Source: a phage. Taken from it: a DNA stretch of 64,000 nt. Both the position numbers and the translations under genes were made by a program. The DNA is taken from sequence record PZ452610.1; one strand, written 5' to 3'. Under the pieces are notes generated by a model. The model was not told where the DNA came from. It saw only the letters and a list, made by a program, of their open reading frames with translations, and ran no database searches. Every line of letters starts with the position of its first letter. Position 1 is the stretch's first letter. Positions 50,714-60,995 of the stretch are shown in pieces.

Positions 50714-53700
50714 ATGGCCGACATCAAACGTAAGTTCAGAGCCGAAGACGGTCTGGACGCCGGTGGCGACAAGATTGTTAACGTAGCATTAGCCGACCGT
50801 ACAGTAGGTACTGATGGCGTAAACGTTGACTTCCTGGTACAAGAAAACACCGTTCAAGTATATGATTCTACGCGTGGATATAACAAAGGATTTGTTGTTC
50901 TTTATGACAACCGTTTATATCAAGCAATAAATGATATCGTGTCTCCTTCCGGGGCATTTAACCTTTTACAATGGCGTGCAGTTCGTACCGATGCACAATG
51001 GATAACTGTCGCTTCTGGGACTTATCAACTTTCTTCAGGTGAATCTATTTCGGTTAACACTGGTGCCGGCAATGATATGGTTTTCACGTTGCCAAATACG
51101 CCGGTTGATGGTGATACTGTTGTTTTGGCTGATATTGGTGGAAGAACCGGGACAGTTAAAGTACAGATTAACGCGTCTGTGCAGAGTATTTTAAACTTTA
51201 GAGGTGAACAAGTTCGTACAGTTTTAATGACGCGCCCACGTTCACAACTATTGTTTGTGTTTAGTAATCGTTTGTGGCAGATGTATATTACCGATTATGG
51301 TAAAGAATCAATCACTGTTACACCTGCGACACCATATCAAGCACAAGCAAATGATTTTATCGTTCGTCGTTTTACTAGTGCAGCACCAATCAACATTACA
51401 CTTCCACGTAATGCTAACAATGGTGATATAATCAGCCTAGTCGATTTAGATAAATTAAACCCACTGTATCATACAATTGTTAAAACATTTGATGATACAA
51501 CGTCTATTGGTGAAGTCGGGACTCATATTGCCGAAGGCAGAAATGACTCTGACGCGTTTTTTGTTTTTGATGCTGCAAATAGTTTATGGCGTATACGGGA
51601 AGGCGACCAGAAATCACGTCTTCGTATTATCCGTGCGGATTCAAATATTCGTCCAAATGAAGAAGTTCTTATTTTTGGCACAAATAACGCTACAACCGGA
51701 ACTATTAATCTTACGCTGCCTACCAGAATTTTGAGTGGTGACACTGTTAAAATTTCAATGAACTACATGCGTAAAGGCCAAACAGTAAAAATTAAAGCTG
51801 CCGAAGGTGATACAATTGCTTCTTCTGTTGCATTGCTTCAGTTCCCTAAACGTTCTGAATATCCACCTGATGCTCAATGGGTCTCTGTTACTGAACTAGA
51901 ATTCAATGGCACTACTTCATATGTTCCTGTATTAGAATTAGCGTATATCGAAGACACTGATTCTGACACTCACTATTGGGTTGTGCAACAGAATGTCCCT
52001 ACGGTAGAACGTGTTGATGCTGGAAATGATGCTACACGAGCTCGTTTAGGTGTTATTGCTCTTGCTACTCAAGCGCAAGCAAATGTTGATTTAGAGAATA
52101 CTCCAGCTAAAGAAGTGGCTATTACTCCGGAAACATTGGCAAATCGTACAGCAACTGAAGCTCGACGTGGTATCGCTAAAATTGCTACAACAGCACAAGT
52201 TAACCAGAATTCCACAGCATCATTTGTGGACGATACTATTGTTACGCCTAAAAAACTAAATGAGCGTACAGCAACTGAAACTCGTCGCGGTCTTGCTGAA
52301 ATTGCTACTCAGACTGAAACCGATGCTGGTCTTGATGACACAACGATTATTACACCTAAGAAATTGCAGGCACGTCAGGGTTCTGAAACACTATCAGGTA
52401 TAGTTAAATATGTATCAACTACTTCTGCTACTCCTGCTGAAACTCGTGGTGCTGCAGGCACTAACGTTTATAATAAAACCGTAAATAATTTAACTATTTC
52501 TCCTAAAGCCCTTGACCAATATAAAGCAACTTATGCTCAACAAGGTGCAGTAATTTTAGCTGTTGATAGTGAAGTAATTGCTGGTCAATCACAAGCAGGT
52601 TATTCTCACGCTGTAGTAACTCCTGAAACACTACATAAGAAAACTTCTACTGATGGACGTATTGGTTTAATTGAAATTGCTACGCAAGCAGAAACTAATG
52701 CTGGGACTGATTATACACGTGCAGTAACGCCTAAGACGTTAAATGATAGGAAAGCTACGGAAGGATTATCCGGCATAGCCGAACTTGCTACGCAAGTTGA
52801 ATTTGATACTGGAACTGACGATACTCGTATCTCAACTCCACTGAAAATTAAAACTCATTTTGATTCTTCTGACCGTACCAGTGTTAATTCTGATTCCGGA
52901 CTTATTGAAGAAGGAACCTTGTGGAACCATTATACTCTTGATATTTCTAAAGCAAATGAAACACAACGTGGTACACTTCGCGTAGCGACTCAGGCAGAAT
53001 CTAATGCAGGAACTTTAGATGATGTTCTTATTACTCCTAAAAAGCTTTTAGGGACTAAGTCCACTGAAACGTCTGAAGGCGTAATTAAGGTTGCTACTCG
53101 GGCTGAAACTGTAACAGGAACTTCTGCTAATACTGCTGTATCTCCTAAGAATTTAAAATGGATTGTCCAGTCTGAACCAACATGGGCTGCTACTACGGCG
53201 ATTCGTGGATTCGTTAAAACTTCATCTGGTTCTATTACATTCGTTGGTAATGATACAGTTGGTTCAACGCAACCTTTAGAATCATATGAAAAAAATAGCT
53301 ATGCTATATCTCCATATGAATTAAACCGTGTACTTGCTAACTATTTGCCGTTGAAAGCTAAAGCCATAGATAGTAATTTATTAGATGGTCTAGATTCATC
53401 TCAGTTCATTCGTAGGGACATTGCACAGACGGTTAATGGTTCACTAACCTTAACCCAACAAACGAATCTGAGTGCCCCTCTTGTATCATCTAGTACTGCT
53501 ACGTTTGGTGGTTCAGTTTCGGCAAATAGTACATTAACTATTTCTAACTCTGGAACAGCTACTCGACTGATTTTTGAAAAAGGACCTCAGACCGGAACAA
53601 ATCCTGCTCAAACTATGACTATCAGAGTTTGGGGAAATGAATTTGGTGGTGGTTCAGATACAACACGTTCTACTGTATTTGAAGTTGGCGATGAAACATC

Positions 53701-54589
53701 TAATCACTTTTATTCTCAACGTAATAAAGCTGGGAATATAACGTTTAGCATTAATGGTACTGTGATGCCAATAAATGTTAACGCTTCAGGCACGTTAAAT
53801 GCGAATGGCGTTGCAACATTTGGTCGTTCAGTTACAGCCAATGGTGAATTCATTAGCAAGTCTGCAAATGCTTTCAGAGCAATTAGTGGTGATTATGGAT
53901 TCTTTATTCGCAATGATGGCGGCAGCACATATTTTATGCTTACTGCATCTGGTGATCAGACCGGTGGATTTAATGGATTACGTCCATTATCAATTAATAA
54001 CCAATCCGGTCAGATTACAATTGGTGAAGGCTTAATCATTGCCAATGGTGCTACTATAAATTCTGGCGGTTTGACTGTTAACTCGAGAATTCGTTCTCAG
54101 GGTACTAAAACATCCGATTTATATACCCGTGCGCCAACATCTGATAATGTAGGATTCTGGTCAATTGATATTAACGATTCAGCCACTTATAACCAGTTCC
54201 CAGGTTATTTTAAAATGGTTGAAAAAACTAATGAAGTGACTGGGCTTCCATACTTAGAACGTGGCGAAGAAGTTAAATCTCCTGGTACATTGACTCAGTT
54301 TGGTAATACACTTGATTCACTTTACCAAGATTGGATTACTTATCCAACAACCCCAGAAGCACGTACAACCCGTTGGACTCGTACATGGCAGAAAACTAAA
54401 AATTCTTGGTCAAGTTTTGTTCAAGTATTTGATGGGGGTAACCCTCCTCAGCCATCTGATATTGGTGCTTTACCTTCTGATAATGCAACAATCGGAAACT
54501 TGACAATAAGGGATTTCTTAAGGATTGGTAATGTCCGCATTATTCCAGACCCTGTGAATAAATCTGTTAAATTCGAGTGGATTGAATAA
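50714..54589 (+). CDS. 34: long tail fibre proximal subunit gp34
   Basis: 1291-aa ORF; late promoter at 50676-50683; repetitive fibre sequence; T4 gp34 size. Confidence 0.95.
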   Translation: MADIKRKFRAEDGLDAGGDKIVNVALADRTVGTDGVNVDFLVQENTVQVYDSTRGYNKGFVVLYDNRLYQAINDIVSPSGAFNLLQWRAVRTDAQWITVASGTYQLSSGESISVNTGAGNDMVFTLPNTPVDGDTVVLADIGGRTGTVKVQINASVQSILNFRGEQVRTVLMTRPRSQLLFVFSNRLWQMYITDYGKESITVTPATPYQAQANDFIVRRFTSAAPINITLPRNANNGDIISLVDLDKLNPLYHTIVKTFDDTTSIGEVGTHIAEGRNDSDAFFVFDAANSLWRIREGDQKSRLRIIRADSNIRPNEEVLIFGTNNATTGTINLTLPTRILSGDTVKISMNYMRKGQTVKIKAAEGDTIASSVALLQFPKRSEYPPDAQWVSVTELEFNGTTSYVPVLELAYIEDTDSDTHYWVVQQNVPTVERVDAGNDATRARLGVIALATQAQANVDLENTPAKEVAITPETLANRTATEARRGIAKIATTAQVNQNSTASFVDDTIVTPKKLNERTATETRRGLAEIATQTETDAGLDDTTIITPKKLQARQGSETLSGIVKYVSTTSATPAETRGAAGTNVYNKTVNNLTISPKALDQYKATYAQQGAVILAVDSEVIAGQSQAGYSHAVVTPETLHKKTSTDGRIGLIEIATQAETNAGTDYTRAVTPKTLNDRKATEGLSGIAELATQVEFDTGTDDTRISTPLKIKTHFDSSDRTSVNSDSGLIEEGTLWNHYTLDISKANETQRGTLRVATQAESNAGTLDDVLITPKKLLGTKSTETSEGVIKVATRAETVTGTSANTAVSPKNLKWIVQSEPTWAATTAIRGFVKTSSGSITFVGNDTVGSTQPLESYEKNSYAISPYELNRVLANYLPLKAKAIDSNLLDGLDSSQFIRRDIAQTVNGSLTLTQQTNLSAPLVSSSTATFGGSVSANSTLTISNSGTATRLIFEKGPQTGTNPAQTMTIRVWGNEFGGGSDTTRSTVFEVGDETSNHFYSQRNKAGNITFSINGTVMPINVNASGTLNANGVATFGRSVTANGEFISKSANAFRAISGDYGFFIRNDGGSTYFMLTASGDQTGGFNGLRPLSINNQSGQITIGEGLIIANGATINSGGLTVNSRIRSQGTKTSDLYTRAPTSDNVGFWSIDINDSATYNQFPGYFKMVEKTNEVTGLPYLERGEEVKSPGTLTQFGNTLDSLYQDWITYPTTPEARTTRWTRTWQKTKNSWSSFVQVFDGGNPPQPSDIGALPSDNATIGNLTIRDFLRIGNVRIIPDPVNKSVKFEWIE

Positions 54590-54597
54590 GAGGTATT

Positions 54598-55725
54598 ATG
54601 GAAAAATTTATGGCTAAGTTTGGACAAGGATACGTCCAAACGCCATTTTTATCGGAAAGCAATTCAGTACGATTTAAATTAAGCATAGCGGGCTCTTGCC
54701 CGCTATCAACATCTCCTGCTTATATTAAGTTCCAGGATAATCCACTTGGGTCCCAGGTTTTTTCCGTTGGATTAAACGTTCGTGTAATAAATCCTACAAC
54801 AGGTGCAGTAGTTGAATCTAAGACATATAATTTCTCTACTGAAAACGACGCCACGTCAAGTGCATTTGTTACTTTCATGGACACATATGCTTCAAATTTT
54901 ATATTTGCTCTTGTTACTAACGCTAAAACAAACTTTCCACCAGAAGTTCTTGCATGGTTTACTAAAGCTGGGAGTTCTGCTATTCCATTAGCTCAACAAG
55001 TTTTAAATATAGTGGACATTTCTTATTCTGCATTTTATATTTCTGGTAAGAATGCTATAGCACTAGAACATATTAAGTATAGTAATAAGAAAACTTCAAC
55101 CGACTATAGTACACCACTTGATGTTGTGTACGACACGATCGATGATATTGGTGCTACCGGCTTCCCTAGACGTACGTATGAATCGTCAGACACATTTTTA
55201 TCTGCCATTGGAGGTACTAATAACGAAATTAAAAGGATGCCTACAGCATCTGTTATTACACCTCTCGCTGGGTATAAATTGAAGCCTGGAGATTTCCTTT
55301 ATATGAAATTCCAACTAATGGCCGATGCCGATTTGTTAGCACAAGGGACGACACGACTTTCTATTCGTTTCTTTAAATCTCCTTCTACTTCACCTATTTC
55401 ATTTAAGGATATAAACTTTGATGGGGCTGCAGGTGAATGGAAGATATATGAAGACTACGTAGAAATTCCTGCTGGTGCTGACGGGTTCACGATTTATTGT
55501 TATCGTACAGCTCCAGTCGGGCAAGGTGGATTAAGAAACGTTATATTCACTGAAGTATCATGTAATGGAAGCGTTTCAAAACCTGCTGAGTTTGGTACGA
55601 ATGGTATTCGTGTAAATTATGTTTCAGAATCTTTAAGTGCTCCAGACATAATGACATTACCTACTCAATCTTCAACTGATACTGGTAAGGTATTTGGTCA
55701 AGAATTTAAAGAAGCACCAGAATAA
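54598..55725 (+). CDS. 35: long tail fibre hinge protein gp35
   Basis: 375-aa ORF following gene 34; terminator downstream. Confidence 0.9.
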   Translation: MEKFMAKFGQGYVQTPFLSESNSVRFKLSIAGSCPLSTSPAYIKFQDNPLGSQVFSVGLNVRVINPTTGAVVESKTYNFSTENDATSSAFVTFMDTYASNFIFALVTNAKTNFPPEVLAWFTKAGSSAIPLAQQVLNIVDISYSAFYISGKNAIALEHIKYSNKKTSTDYSTPLDVVYDTIDDIGATGFPRRTYESSDTFLSAIGGTNNEIKRMPTASVITPLAGYKLKPGDFLYMKFQLMADADLLAQGTTRLSIRFFKSPSTSPISFKDINFDGAAGEWKIYEDYVEIPAGADGFTIYCYRTAPVGQGGLRNVIFTEVSCNGSVSKPAEFGTNGIRVNYVSESLSAPDIMTLPTQSSTDTGKVFGQEFKEAPE

Positions 55726-55787: not shown

Positions 55788-56453
55788 ATGGCCGATTTAA
55801 AAGCTGGTAGTACAACTGGCGGTGCCGTTATATGGCATCAAGGTAATTTCCCTTTAATGCCAGCAGGTGATGACGTCCTGTATAAAACGTTTAAACTCTA
55901 TTCAGAATATAATAAGCCACAAGCTGCTGATAATGATTTCGTTTCTAAAGCAAATGGTGGTACTTATGCATCAAAGGTAACATTTAACGGCGGTGTTCAA
56001 ATACCATATGCTATAAACAATACAAATCAATCTGGTATTTATCCTGGTAATGGAGATGCAGCTACTTTTGTTACAGCAAATATTGATATTGTTTCGTGGT
56101 ATGGTATTGGTTTTAAATCATCACAAGGAACAGCGGGTAGAACTGTAGTAATTAATACACGTAATGGTGATATTAATACAAAAGGCGTTGTGTCGGCAGC
56201 TGGTCAAGTAAGAAGTGATGCGGCTGCTCCTATAGCAGCGAATGACCTTACTAGAAAAGATTATGTTGATGGACGAATAAATATTGTTACGGATAACGCA
56301 AATTCCCGTGTATTGCGTAAAGGCGATACCATGACTGGTACTTTAACAGCACCAAACTTTTTCTCACAGAATCCGGCGTCTGAGGCTAATCATGTTCCTC
56401 GTTTCGACCAGATTGTAATTAAAGATTCTGTTCAAGATTTCGGCTATTATTAA
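55788..56453 (+). CDS. 36: long tail fibre distal subunit gp36
   Basis: 221-aa ORF; late promoter at 55756-55763; SD AAGGAG. Confidence 0.9.
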
Positions 56454-56461
56454 GAGGACTT

Positions 56462-59400
56462 ATGGCTACATTAAAACAGATACAATTTAAAAGAAGCAAA
56501 GTAGCAGGAGTTAATCCTACTGCAGCACAATTAGCCGAAGGCGAATTAGCGATAAACTTAAAAGATCGAACTCTTTTTACTAAAGATGACCTCGGTAATA
56601 TTATTAGCCTAGGCTTTGCTAAGGGCGGGGATATTAACGGTAATGTAACTCAAAATGGTGATTATTTACAAAACGGCACGTATAATCTTAATGGAAACCA
56701 GTTTGTTTATGCAGGAAAGTATATTGAATTCTTGCCAAAAACTGCTGGAAATGGCGCTTGGGCTAACCAACACACAAATAAAGCCCCTATCTTTACAGAT
56801 TTGAGTTCAACTACTTCAACTTCTGAATACCACCCTTTGATTAAGCAACGTTATAAAGACGGTACTTTTTCAGTAGGTACATTAGTAAGCGAAGGCTCAT
56901 TTAGAGTTCATTATATTGATTCTACAGCTCCAGACAATTCTAAACACTGGGTCTTTAACCGTAATGGTAATTTTATTGTAGATTCTGGTAGTATTGAGGT
57001 CCGCGCAGGTAATATTTCTGCGTCAGGCAATATTAACTCCGCTAATGGTATAGTTTCTGCTCCACAAGTTAATACGAAAACCATTGTTTTAGACACAAAA
57101 GCATTCGGACAATATGATTCACAGTCATTAGTTCAATATGTTTATCCTGGAACAGGTGAAGAAAATGGTATAAACTATCTTCGTAAAGTTCGAGCTAAAT
57201 CAGGTGGAACTATTTACCATGAAATCGCTTCAGCTCAAACTGGTAAGAATGATGAAATTTCTTGGTGGACCGGAAATACACTTACTACTAAATTAATGGG
57301 TCTTCGTAATGATGGCGCAATGGTATTACGTCGTTCACTTGCTATTGGCACAATTACCACTGATGAAAATACCAATAACTACGGCTCTCCTACTCCAATG
57401 GGAGAAAGATATATTGCTTTGGGTGATGCTGCCACTGGTTTAAAATACATTAAGCAGGGTGTTTATGATTTAGTAGGTAATTGGAATTCTGTTGCTTCTA
57501 TTACTCCTGACAGTTTCCGTAGTACTCGTAAAGGTATATTTGGTCGTTCCGAGGACCAAGGCACCACATGGATTATGCCTGGTACAAATGCTGCTCTCTT
57601 GTCTGTTCAAACACAAGCTGATAATAACAATGCTGGAGACGGACAAACCCATATCGGGTACAATGCTGGTGGTAAAATGAACCACTATTTCCGTGGTACA
57701 GGTCAGATGAATATCAATACCCAACAAGGTATGGAAATTAACCCGGGTATTCTTAAACTAGTAACTGGCTCTAATAATGTAATGTTTTATGCTGATGGCG
57801 GTATTACATCTGTTAAGCAGCTTTCAATATATAACGGCATATATTTAGCAGCTAATAATTCTACTGCTGGGCTAACATTCGCTCCAACTACTACAATTGA
57901 TGGCACTAAGCAAATTTTGTGGGAAGGCGGTACTCGTGCTGGTCAGAATAAAAGCTATGTAACTGTTAAAGCATGGGGTAATTCATTTAACGCATCTGGC
58001 GATCGTAATCGTGAAACAGTTTTTGAAGTAGCTGACGGCCAGGGATATTATTTTTATTCTCAGCGCGTAGCTCCAACCGGTTCAGAAACTGTGGGACCTG
58101 TTGTAACACAAATTAATGGACAACTGAATGCAAGAGGGAGCATTATCACCGATGGAAGTCTTAGAGTTAATGGATTAAGTACATTATCCGGACAAGTTAC
58201 TATGGATAACGGGCTTGTTTTATCCGGCGGTGGTTCTATTACCGGTCAAGTTAAAATCGGCAATACCGCAGATGCTTTCCGTATTTACAATGCTGAATAT
58301 GGAGCTATTTTCCGTCGTTCTGAAGCGTCTTTGCATATTATACCTACACTTAAAGATGCAGGTGAAAATGGTGGTATTTCTAACCTTCGCCCATTGAGTG
58401 TTTCTCTTAACAACGGTATGGTTCAAATGCGCCATTCTGTTACGTTAGGTGATGATGGTGCTGGCGGTAATATGGTGACCGTTGATAATGATAATAAACT
58501 TGTTGTTATAACTAGTCATAGTCGCATTTCTCCTAATTACCGTATGCAATTAGGACAATCGGCATATATCGACGCTGAATGTACTGATACTGCACGACCT
58601 GCTGGAGCCGGTTCTTTTGCTTCTCAGAATAATGAAAACGTTCGTGCTCCGTTCTATATGAATATTGATAGAACAGATACAAGCACTTATGTTCCTATTG
58701 TGAAACAAAGATACGTTCAAAATAATAGTTGCTATTCTATTGGTACTTTAATTAATGGTGGTAACTTTAGAGTTCACTATCACGAAGGTGGTGACGGCGT
58801 TTCTACTGGCGCAATTATAAAGGATTTAGGTTGGGAATTTAATAAAAACGGTGATTTTTACTCTCCTGGTAAATTAGGCGCTGGTAATGTTCGTATTGGT
58901 ACTGATGGTAATATCACCGGCGGTTCTGGTAATTTTGCTAACTTGAATACCACAATAAATAACCTTAAGACAGATATTGTCTCAAGTTATCCTATTGGTG
59001 CTCCGATTCCTTGGCCTACTGATACACCTCCTGAAGGTTATGCCATAATGGAAGGTCAAACATTTGATACTGGCTTGTATCCTAAGTTAGCTGCGGTGTA
59101 TCCTTCCGGCACTCTGCCCGATATGCGTGGTCAGACGATTAAAGGTAAACCATCTGGGCGTGATGTATTAAGTACAGAAGCTGATGGTATTAAGTCTCAT
59201 AACCATAGTGCTTCAGCATCTAATACTGATTTAGGTACTAAAACCACATCAAGCTTTGATTATGGTACTAAAACATCTTCAAGCTTTGATTATGGTACTA
59301 AAACCAGTAATACCACAGGTAACCATAACCATACGGTGAGTGGAACTACAAGTGCTGCAGGTAACCACCAACATGCGCGCTCAGGTCCTCAGATACAAGC

Positions 59401-59743
59401 TGGCATACCCAATAACATATTCTATGACGGATATAATAGTGTAGGTGCAAACGCCAACGCTAAATTCACTGGAACCGTGAACGGTGCTACTGCAGGGTCG
59501 AATATAGCCAAAACTTCTTCAGAAGGTAACCATACACACTCTTGGTCAGGAACCACAAGTACCACAGGTAACCATGCTCATACTGTGGGTATTGGTGCTC
59601 ATACCCATTCGGTAGGTATTGGTGCTCATTCTCATACTGTTGCAATTGGTTCCCATGGACATACAATAACTGTAAATGCCACAGGAAATACAGAAAACAC
59701 AGTTAAAAACGTTGCTTTTAACTATATCGTTCGTTTAGCATAA
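56462..59743 (+). CDS. 37: long tail fibre distal subunit gp37 (receptor-binding tip)
   Basis: 1093-aa ORF; C-terminal region with His-x-His boxes and tandem repeats. Confidence 0.93.
59234..59311 (+). repeat. tandem 30-bp repeat (2.6 copies) within the gp37 tip region
   Basis: GGTACTAAAAC(C/A)nCnTCAAGCTTTGATTAT repeated, encoding [25 protein letters not shown]. Confidence 0.8.
59584..59672 (+). repeat. tandem ~27-bp repeats encoding His-x-His boxes in the gp37 C-terminus
   Basis: Encodes [27 protein letters not shown], preceded by further GNHxH motifs. Confidence 0.7.
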
Positions 59744-59756
59744 GGAGAAGGGACTT

Positions 59757-60326
59757 ATGTCCCTTTTTTATAATATGAAACTCTATCACTATTATTTTGA
59801 CACTAAAGAATTTTACAAAGAAGAAAATTATAAACCATTAAAAGGCGTAGGATTTCCGGCTCATTCGACACCAAAAAAACCTTTAGACCCTAAAGAAGGC
59901 TATGCTGTTATATTTGACGAACGCGAGCAAGAATGGGTATATGTTGAAGACCATCGTGGAAAAACGGTATGGACTTATGATAAGCAAAAAATTGTTATTG
60001 ACACTCCAGGTGCTCTTCAAAATGTTACTACAGAAGAACCCGGTGAATTTGACATTTGGACCGACGACGGGTGGAAGGAAGATGAAGCATATAAACGCGT
60101 AGTTCAACGTGATAAGAAAATTCATGAACTCTATAAATTATTCAGTGTTTTAAGTTCTCTTATTGACGCAGAGGTTGCTAGTAGAGAAGAAAAACGAAAA
60201 TTTAAAGAGCTCAAAAAATTCTTTGCCCTTTTAGAAAAACATGAACATCTTGGCGGCGAATTCCCTAAATTCCCTGACCTTGAAAACAAATCTATTATCA
60301 AAGCGATTATAAATATCTTTAAGTAA
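59757..60326 (+). CDS. 38: tail fibre assembly chaperone gp38 (T4 type)
   Basis: 189-aa ORF, sequence recognisably T4 gp38 (..KLYHYYFDTKEFYKEENYKP..); SD AAGGAG. Confidence 0.9.
   Translation: MSLFYNMKLYHYYFDTKEFYKEENYKPLKGVGFPAHSTPKKPLDPKEGYAVIFDEREQEWVYVEDHRGKTVWTYDKQKIVIDTPGALQNVTTEEPGEFDIWTDDGWKEDEAYKRVVQRDKKIHELYKLFSVLSSLIDAEVASREEKRKFKELKKFFALLEKHEHLGGEFPKFPDLENKSIIKAIINIFK
60308..60315 (+). promoter_or_regulatory. late promoter (TATAAATA) for holin t
   Basis: Exact TATAAATA inside the 3' end of gene 38, about 20 nt upstream of the t ATG. Confidence 0.6.
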
Positions 60327-60335
60327 GGAGGTATT

Positions 60336-60995
60336 ATGGCAACACCAAAAGTATCATTTTCGCCTAGTGATATTCTATTTGGGTTGCTAGATCGTATTTT
60401 CAAAGATAACGCTACTGGAAAGGTTTTAATGTCCCGAGTAGCGGTAATTATTCTTTTGTTCCTAATGGCACTAATATGGTACAAAGGAAGTATTTTGCTG
60501 GATTATTATGTAAGAGCTAAGTATGATACTTATACTGAAATAATCCAAAAAGAACGAGCTTTACGTTTTGAATCTGCGGCTCTAGAACAACTGCAAATAG
60601 TTCATATCTCATCTGGTGCAGATTTTAGTGCTGTGTATTCTTTCAGACCTAAAAACTTAAATTATTTTGTCGACCTTATAGCTTATGAAGGCAAACTACC
60701 TAGCACAATTTCTGAAAAGTCCCTTGGCGGATTCCCAGTGGATAAAACGGCCAATGAATATATAATTCATTTAAGTGGCCGTCATTTCTCATCTAAATCA
60801 GAATTTGCATTTTTGCCTACAAAATCTAAGACTGCCGAACTTTCTTATATGTATAGTTGTCCATACTTTAATTTGGATAACATCTATGCTGGAACTGTGA
60901 CGATGTATTGGTATAAGGGGAGTAATATACTTGAGGAAGATCGCTTAGCGGCTATATGCAACCAAGCGATCCGAATACTAGGAAGGGCTAAATAA
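60336..60995 (+). CDS. t: holin T
   Basis: 219-aa ORF with single N-terminal TM segment and large periplasmic domain; sequence recognisably T4 T; late promoter at 60308-60315. Confidence 0.92.
   Translation: MATPKVSFSPSDILFGLLDRIFKDNATGKVLMSRVAVIILLFLMALIWYKGSILLDYYVRAKYDTYTEIIQKERALRFESAALEQLQIVHISSGADFSAVYSFRPKNLNYFVDLIAYEGKLPSTISEKSLGGFPVDKTANEYIIHLSGRHFSSKSEFAFLPTKSKTAELSYMYSCPYFNLDNIYAGTVTMYWYKGSNILEEDRLAAICNQAIRILGRAK

Follow-up and report, generated by a model that had tools for sequence, protein, structure and literature searches.

The distal long-tail-fibre subunit gp37 of T-even phages is known in structure from a sole solved fragment, residues 785-1026 of the T4 protein (2XGF). 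In T4, domain D10 comprises residues 811-881 + 1010-1026, the D11 needle stem residues 882-931 + 960-1009, and the tip subdomain residues 932-959; metal ions lie along the axis of the needle, coordinated by His-x-His motifs from all three chains (PMC6957217). Each chain passes from the knob to the tip and back (PMC9603124). We analysed gp37 in a 64,000-nucleotide (nt) stretch of phage DNA (record PZ452610.1), hereafter the window, by which the whole stretch is meant. The gp37 locus of the window resembles that of T4 in its knob, stem arms, His-x-His motifs, C-terminal segment and downstream gp38 chaperone. It differs in a putative extra stem rung of 10 + 9 amino acids (aa), in having eight His-x-His motifs vs seven, in a stretch between the two innermost motifs that is 18 aa longer (52 vs 34 residues) and unrelated in sequence, and in 30 net additional residues in the shaft. 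We consider it likely that gp37 of the window carries a stem extended by one paired rung, that specificity resides in the tip, that gp38 is a chaperone, and that the receptor is, most likely, OmpC.

Three other described systems are close to this locus. The gp37 proteins of phages FelixPlatter (Bas40), AndreasVesalius (Bas42), teqhad, p000y and JS09 have the same spacing of His-x-His motifs as the window and differ from it by point substitutions, mostly in the tip. Over aa 841-1093, the C-terminal part of Stf, the side tail fibre protein of phage lambda (Ur-lambda), shows 63% identity; it also has eight His-x-His motifs, with spacings of 42,14,48,14,9,9,9; its tip, N-terminal shaft and siphovirus context are different. 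In fibres of the T2/T6 type, homology covers two thirds of gp37 from the N-terminus (69% for T2 over aa 1-837). However, they are without the collar-needle C-terminus and their gp38 is the adhesin, whereas gp38 of the window is of the chaperone type.

Domain map and repeat arrays of gp37

The gp37 open reading frame (ORF) encodes 1093 aa, in comparison with 1026 aa in T4. The greater length had been given in an earlier note on this DNA and was confirmed.

56462..59743, + strand: gp37, distal long-tail-fibre subunit with C-terminal adhesin (ORF, DNA identity, PHROG 1699, T4 alignment)

PHROG 1699 ('long tail fiber protein distal subunit') matched gp37 with E = 6e-290. A phmmer search aligned aa 816-1093 with residues 2-242 of the 2XGF chain (E = 1.5e-87), and the gaps of this alignment fell exactly at two repeat arrays and the tip. 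Pfam Collar (PF07484) was detected at aa 846-893 (42 bits vs a cut-off of 24, E = 9e-11), and PF03335 ('Phage tail fibre repeat'), which in Pfam already covers the His-box unit, was detected on six stretches (21.7 bits vs a cut-off of 20). By these matches, gp37 is a T-even distal fibre subunit with a T4-type adhesin at its C-terminus. The GenBank records of three E. coli O157 typing phages, 3, 6 and 13, contain this gene with 100% DNA identity; typing phage 3 is placed in Mosigvirus by GenBank. Fifty-eight phage records aligned across at least 80% of the gene, and the architecture was common to dozens of T-even phages. The gene is an already known allele, ordinary for a well-understood adhesin family.

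Window gp37 was aligned globally with T4 gp37 of OL964745.1 (L001, clone T4_7t1), which is laboratory-evolved. The C-terminal part was divided as follows:

58982..59194, + strand: D10 knob/collar, N-terminal part, aa 841-911 (= T4 811-881; from Pfam Collar, 2XGF and the limits in PMC6957217)
59195..59374, + strand: D11 stem, descending arm, aa 912-971, with His-x-His at 913, 955 and 969 (= T4 882-931 plus 10 aa)
59375..59530, + strand: stretch between the innermost His-x-His boxes, aa 972-1023, 52 residues, containing the tip subdomain (spacing 55 vs 37 in T4)
59531..59689, + strand: D11 stem, ascending arm, aa 1024-1076, with His-x-His at 1024, 1038, 1047, 1056 and 1065 (= T4 960-1009 plus 9 aa, with 3 aa at the tip boundary)
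59690..59743, + strand: C-terminal D10 segment, aa 1077-1093, plus stop codon (conserved in all homologues)

The tail after the last His-x-His had a constant length of 28 residues in all homologues. Relative to T4, insertions were located at these positions:

aa 120-131: 12 residues, shaft
aa 171-178: 8 residues, shaft
aa 195-201: 7 residues, shaft
aa 560: 1 residue, shaft
aa 655-665: 11 residues, shaft
aa 930-939: 10 residues, needle, descending stem arm
aa 972-986: 15 residues, needle, tip subdomain
aa 1015-1017: 3 residues, needle, tip subdomain
aa 1049-1057: 9 residues, needle, ascending stem arm

After four small deletions, all of them in the shaft (9 residues in all), were taken into account, the net gain was 67 aa. 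An enlarged tip, as had been proposed earlier, describes this gain in part: 37 of the 67 residues lie in the D11 needle and 18 of these (15 + 3) in the tip subdomain, but 19 (10 + 9) belong to the stem arms and 30 to the shaft.

The shaft contains an internal duplication, in which aa 102-171 (56765-56974) resemble aa 723-799 (58628-58858) with 37% identity (E = 7e-16) and the common motif ...KQRY...GTL..G.FRVHY... Only the C-terminal copy is conserved in T4; the N-terminal copy is within a poorly aligned region, and this region supplies part of the extra length outside the tip. In the T4 reference itself, residue 953, within the tip subdomain, is H vs Y in 2XGF (AISHRAGG vs AISYRAGG), presumably a host-range adaptation.

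The stem arms of the window contain two tandem arrays and the two copies of a longer direct repeat:

59234..59323, + strand: 30-nt tandem array, three 10-aa GTKTxSSFDY units, aa 925-954 in codon register (T4 has one unit fewer)
59317..59367, + strand: left copy of a 51-nt repeat, a 14-residue His-box module of the descending arm
59524..59574, + strand: right copy of the 51-nt repeat, a 14-residue His-box module of the ascending arm
59567..59647, + strand: 27-nt tandem array, three 9-aa GIGAHxHxV units (T4 has one unit and one His-x-His fewer)

Tandem Repeats Finder reported the 30-nt array at 59227-59306 (2.7 copies, 86% matches) and the 27-nt array at 59573-59640 (2.5 copies, 78% matches). 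Units 2 and 3 of the 30-nt array were 83% and 67% identical to unit 1, and a 26-nt exact repeat, TCAAGCTTTGATTATGGTACTAAAAC, recurred in this array at an offset of 30 nt. The later units of the 27-nt array were 83% and 80% identical to the first, with a 15-nt exact repeat at the repeat offset. The two copies of the 51-nt repeat, which flank the tip, were 73% identical. The earlier note had described a near-perfect 30-bp tandem repeat; the repeat is present and its start at 59234 was exact, but 'near-perfect' is too strong for units that diverge to this degree. The peptides GIGAHTHSV and GIGAHSHTV had also been listed, although the second tandem DNA array had been overlooked. All seven His boxes named at that time were found, and an eighth, KSHNHS at aa 913-915, had been missed. 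The window thus has eight His-x-His motifs after the collar, at the positions given above for the two arms, whereas T4 gp37 has seven, at 883, 915, 929 and then 966, 980, 989, 998. As the earlier note had held, these boxes are the counterparts of the motifs that coordinate metal in the T4 needle (PMC6957217).

Matched copy numbers in the two stem arms

The spacing of His-x-His motifs was recorded in 120 close homologues, 146 representatives at ≤50% identity, 57 viral contigs and 80 bacterial-genome loci, which amounted to ~294 distinct complete sequences. These sequences followed a rule in which a first-to-second spacing of 32 + 10k goes with 2 + k nine-residue spacings in the ascending arm, k being the number of rungs beyond T4:

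Spacing 22, one nine-residue spacing: k = -1
Spacing 32, two nine-residue spacings: k = 0
Spacing 41-42, three nine-residue spacings: k = 1
Spacing 52, four nine-residue spacings: k = 2
Spacing 62, five nine-residue spacings: k = 3
Spacing 73, six nine-residue spacings: k = 4

Copy numbers of the two arms matched in 292 of the ~294 homologues, over all six k states. The inner His-box modules were symmetric throughout (0/0, 1/1 or 2/2), with lengths of 14/14, or 12/12 in L121 and L133. When k = 0 or 1 was combined with 0 or 1 inner modules, all four combinations were found to exist. For at least six tip families, defined at 70% identity or more, stems of differing k were found, and the arms were matched every time. 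In the first census, ~40% of 243 distinct sequences had k = 1; the 'expansion' of the window is a common state, and T4 is on the short side among the relatives sampled. On a tree of the collar and C-terminal flanks, the copy-number state changed at least 42 times, and identical flanks carried different, internally matched cassettes. This shows that D11 cassettes are exchanged frequently, which alone is no proof of constraint.

Several apparent exceptions to the rule were rejected. In P0211 and P0244 the descending spacer contains an additional His-x-His, and one His-x-His is missing from P0219. L102 has a 2-residue deletion within a His box, and L147 has an HxH -> YSH mutation; L121 and L133 carry the 12/12 modules mentioned above. 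In each of these sequences, the lengths of the arms fit the rule.

The published T4 contacts G921-F970 and H929-G964, taken with the limits 882/1009 and 931/960 (PMC6957217), imply that residues opposite each other on the two arms have i + j ~1891-1893. The extra descending unit of the window maps to T4 895-905 and the extra ascending unit to T4 986-996, gap placement within a repeat being ambiguous. By this sum the two insertion sites would face each other, so that the two duplications can be read as one added stem rung. In the structure that we propose, each chain would leave the D10 knob, follow a thin stem as far as the tip subdomain and return, giving a descending and an ascending arm. 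One extra rung in comparison with T4 would then consist of two separate in-frame tandem duplications facing each other. The descending half-rung would be a 10-residue GTKTxSSFDY unit without His, and the ascending half-rung a 9-residue GIGAHxHxV unit with one His-x-His. Very roughly, this would add 2.5-3 nm to the stem, and each fibre would have eight metal sites vs seven in T4. The repeats would thus form a length module with coupled copy numbers, not a free-running variable region.

Tentatively, we suggest that the needle stem may be a quantised modular ruler made of two kinds of paired rung. Its metal sites would number 4 to 10, as given by 5 + 2n + k, with n inner modules in each arm and k as defined above. 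One kind of rung may consist of 10 aa without His facing 9 aa with one His-x-His, and the other of 14/14 or 12/12 residues with one His-x-His per arm. No statement of the arm-pairing rule was found in the literature searched, which excluded the primary structure paper and the Tetart papers; this rule is the only point of the analysis that is possibly new. Since the repeats of the two arms change together, host range is not free to vary with the copy number of a single array, and the engineering of T4- or lambda-type fibre tips would call for units to be added or deleted on both arms. For annotation, the number of metal sites and the relative length of the needle could be read from the His-x-His spacing. 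If true, the ruler would furnish a design rule for longer or shorter engineered needles and a sequence-only check for defective alleles.

Tip subdomain, receptor and weighing of the alternatives

Nine T-even gp37 proteins were compared: those of the window, JS09, LH01, ST0, p000y, G53, teqhad, Bas40 and Bas42. All nine had the spacing pattern 42,14,55,14,9,9,9 and, without any indel, the same length of exactly 181 residues between the first His-x-His and the C-terminus. In gp37 of JQD51, the stem copy numbers equal those of the window but the tip is shorter (spacing 37). The nine proteins varied at the following numbers of sites:

Tip: 35 of 52 sites
Descending arm: 11 of 59 sites
Ascending arm: 5 of 44 sites
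C-terminus: 2 of 26 sites

Three tip alleles were present, the second in JS09 and p000y and the third in LH01, ST0 and G53. The tip of the window differed by two residues from those of Bas40 and teqhad and by three from that of Bas42. The stretch between the innermost His boxes is presumed to be the receptor-binding surface, and host specificity would reside in this stretch. For Mosigvirus gp37, the major differences have likewise been located in the head domain, with experimental confirmation of OmpC for two phages (PMC10844046). A preprint (bioRxiv 10.64898/2026.04.02.716166) agrees in that variation is concentrated in the tip subdomain; it also lists 'TP6' among 17 OmpC-specific Straboviridae gp37. 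The dependence of Bas40 on OmpC was shown by genetic complementation (PMC8594841). Because the tip of the window is two residues away from that of OmpC-dependent Bas40, the primary receptor is most likely OmpC. The repeat finding as stated in the earlier note is of little consequence: the gp37 allele is published, and its receptor is very probably OmpC. That the stem was lengthened in adaptation to O157 hosts bearing O-antigen was considered and rejected as unsupported; the stems of K-12-isolated phages and of lambda Stf are equally long.

The gene for gp38 adjoins gp37 downstream:

59757..60326, + strand: gp38, T4-type tail-fibre assembly chaperone, 189 aa (Pfam Caudo_TAP, PHROG 105, T4 identity)

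Identity to T4 gp38 was 63% (119 of 189 residues), and the protein matched Pfam Caudo_TAP and PHROG 105 'tail fiber assembly' (E = 4e-50). When gp38 was examined as a T2/T6-type adhesin, Caudo_TAP and tail-fibre-assembly PHROGs were matched instead. These findings bear out the earlier assignment of gp38 as a T4-type chaperone and not a T2-type adhesin.

Several points weigh against a paired-rung extension of the stem. We infer from two published contacts and from the co-variation of the arms that the extra units face each other, that an eighth metal site is present and that the stem is longer. An AlphaFold2 monomer of aa 816-1093, based on a 42-sequence alignment, reached a predicted local distance difference test score (pLDDT) of 50.4 and a predicted template modelling score (pTM) of 0.21, and was uninformative for what is an obligate interwoven trimer in which six histidines hold each axial metal ion. 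The T4 reference is a laboratory mutant (residue 953 H), although its lengths are unaffected. Independent paired events are fewer than sequences, and much of the co-variation could be inherited through exchange of whole cassettes. The text of the preprint, in its available part, does not equate 'TP6' with O157 typing phage 6. Finally, two one-sided alleles were found. L008 (IMGVR_UViG_3300030021_000020, 1-2310), a T-even-like gp37 on a metagenomic viral contig, combines a first spacing of 42 with just two spacings of nine residues, its ascending arm being shorter by exactly 27 nt. The deletion site is identical to T4, the sequence beyond it is identical to the window, and gp38 and holin follow intact. 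This allele could be a slippage or recombination intermediate. L050 (IMGVR_UViG_2713896732_000001, 121-2094) is one-sided in the opposite direction, having spacing 32 with three nine-residue spacings. Coupling of the arms is therefore strong, not absolute.

The earlier note had read the repeat expansion as a slippage-driven host-range hot spot. In such a case, the GTKTxSSFDY array would be a slippage-prone contingency repeat whose copy-number changes alter host range, which we consider quite improbable. The 26-nt and 15-nt exact repeats in the two arrays speak for slippage, and the natural alleles L008 and L050 indicate that single-array changes do arise. Laboratory T4 host-range mutants with duplications in this region were reportedly described by Tetart et al. 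1996, as cited in PMC6957217 and PMC3157838. Unit identity points both ways, the units having diverged to 83% and 67% (30 nt) and to 83% and 80% (27 nt) but retaining the exact cores. Nevertheless, no copy-number polymorphism was observed among the close relatives, that is, the window and nine other T-even gp37 including JQD51; the three typing-phage records are identical as well. The two arms are locked together in nearly all homologues, diversity is concentrated in the tip, and the array is located in the stem, away from the receptor-contacting tip residues of T4 (PMC6957217). On these grounds the hot-spot claim is not supported. An assembly or sequencing artefact, which the earlier note had named as a possible objection to the repeat, has a negligible probability: an identical sequence is present in three GenBank records, and the same copy numbers on both arms are present in nine other GenBank T-even phages, the IMG/VR contig L007 and lambda Stf. 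Artefactual assembly is thereby excluded.

It is unlikely that the matching of the arms reflects historical linkage, with D11 swapped as a whole cassette and matched numbers inherited without structural constraint. Identical collar and C-terminal flanks do carry entirely different D11 cassettes, and numerous copy-number changes on the flank tree (at least 42) are what cassette swapping predicts. However, single crossovers in the 150-nt tip between cassettes of differing k would mismatch the arms, and arms of this kind are nearly absent. Each of the six copy-number states and three inner-module states required both arms to change, and wherever one tip family occurs on stems of differing length, both flanks of the tip must have changed. 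Because both arms had to change for these states, because all four combinations of k and inner modules are present, and because tip families that span several k remain matched, we conclude that the coupling of the arms in the paired stem is a real structural constraint, leaky in ~1% of sequences.

Neighbouring genes and database observations

ORFs and Pfam matches placed the locus in canonical T-even order. The genes around gp37 and gp38, each assigned on the basis of ORF/Pfam, were:

50714-54589: gp34
54598-55725: gp35
55788-56453: gp36
60336-60995: holin t

A shaft module common to gp34 and gp37 is already known. In the window, aa 469-661 of the gp37 shaft (57866-58444) showed homology to the C-terminal part of gp34 whose structure is solved (5NXF + 4UXE, E ~3e-13). 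The hinge protein gp35 (54598-55725) matched Pfam ILEI (PF15711) at aa 58-129, with 30.1 bits vs a gathering score of 27; this family represents the interleukin-like EMT (epithelial-mesenchymal transition) inducer or FAM3-PANDER fold. A gp35 homologue in L070, described below, is also on record as a member of PF15711.

The two closest database proteins, P0001 and P0002, are listed as Shigella 'tail fiber protein', and an occurrence of the tip in prophages was considered on this basis. This reading was dropped, as P0002 lies on a T-even phage contig, between gp36 and gp38 on a 165,868-bp contig of a Shigella flexneri assembly. L070 (GCA_020965735.1, ABDZMY010000004.1, 165,868 bp, 'Shigella flexneri' assembly) is a T-even phage genome of complete size. 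Its gp37 was called as a 455-aa C-terminal fragment only, and ~1.7 kb after gp36 is left uncalled.

Identical lambda-type Stf sequences (L071-L082, L127 and others) were found in assemblies labelled Chromatium, Leeuwenhoekiella, Pseudomonas, Paenibacillus, Shewanella, Kitasatospora, Bradyrhizobium and others. Many of the contigs that bear them are of low coverage, and three of those are ~48.4-48.5 kb long. The presence of these Stf copies in unrelated assemblies looks like contamination with phage lambda DNA.

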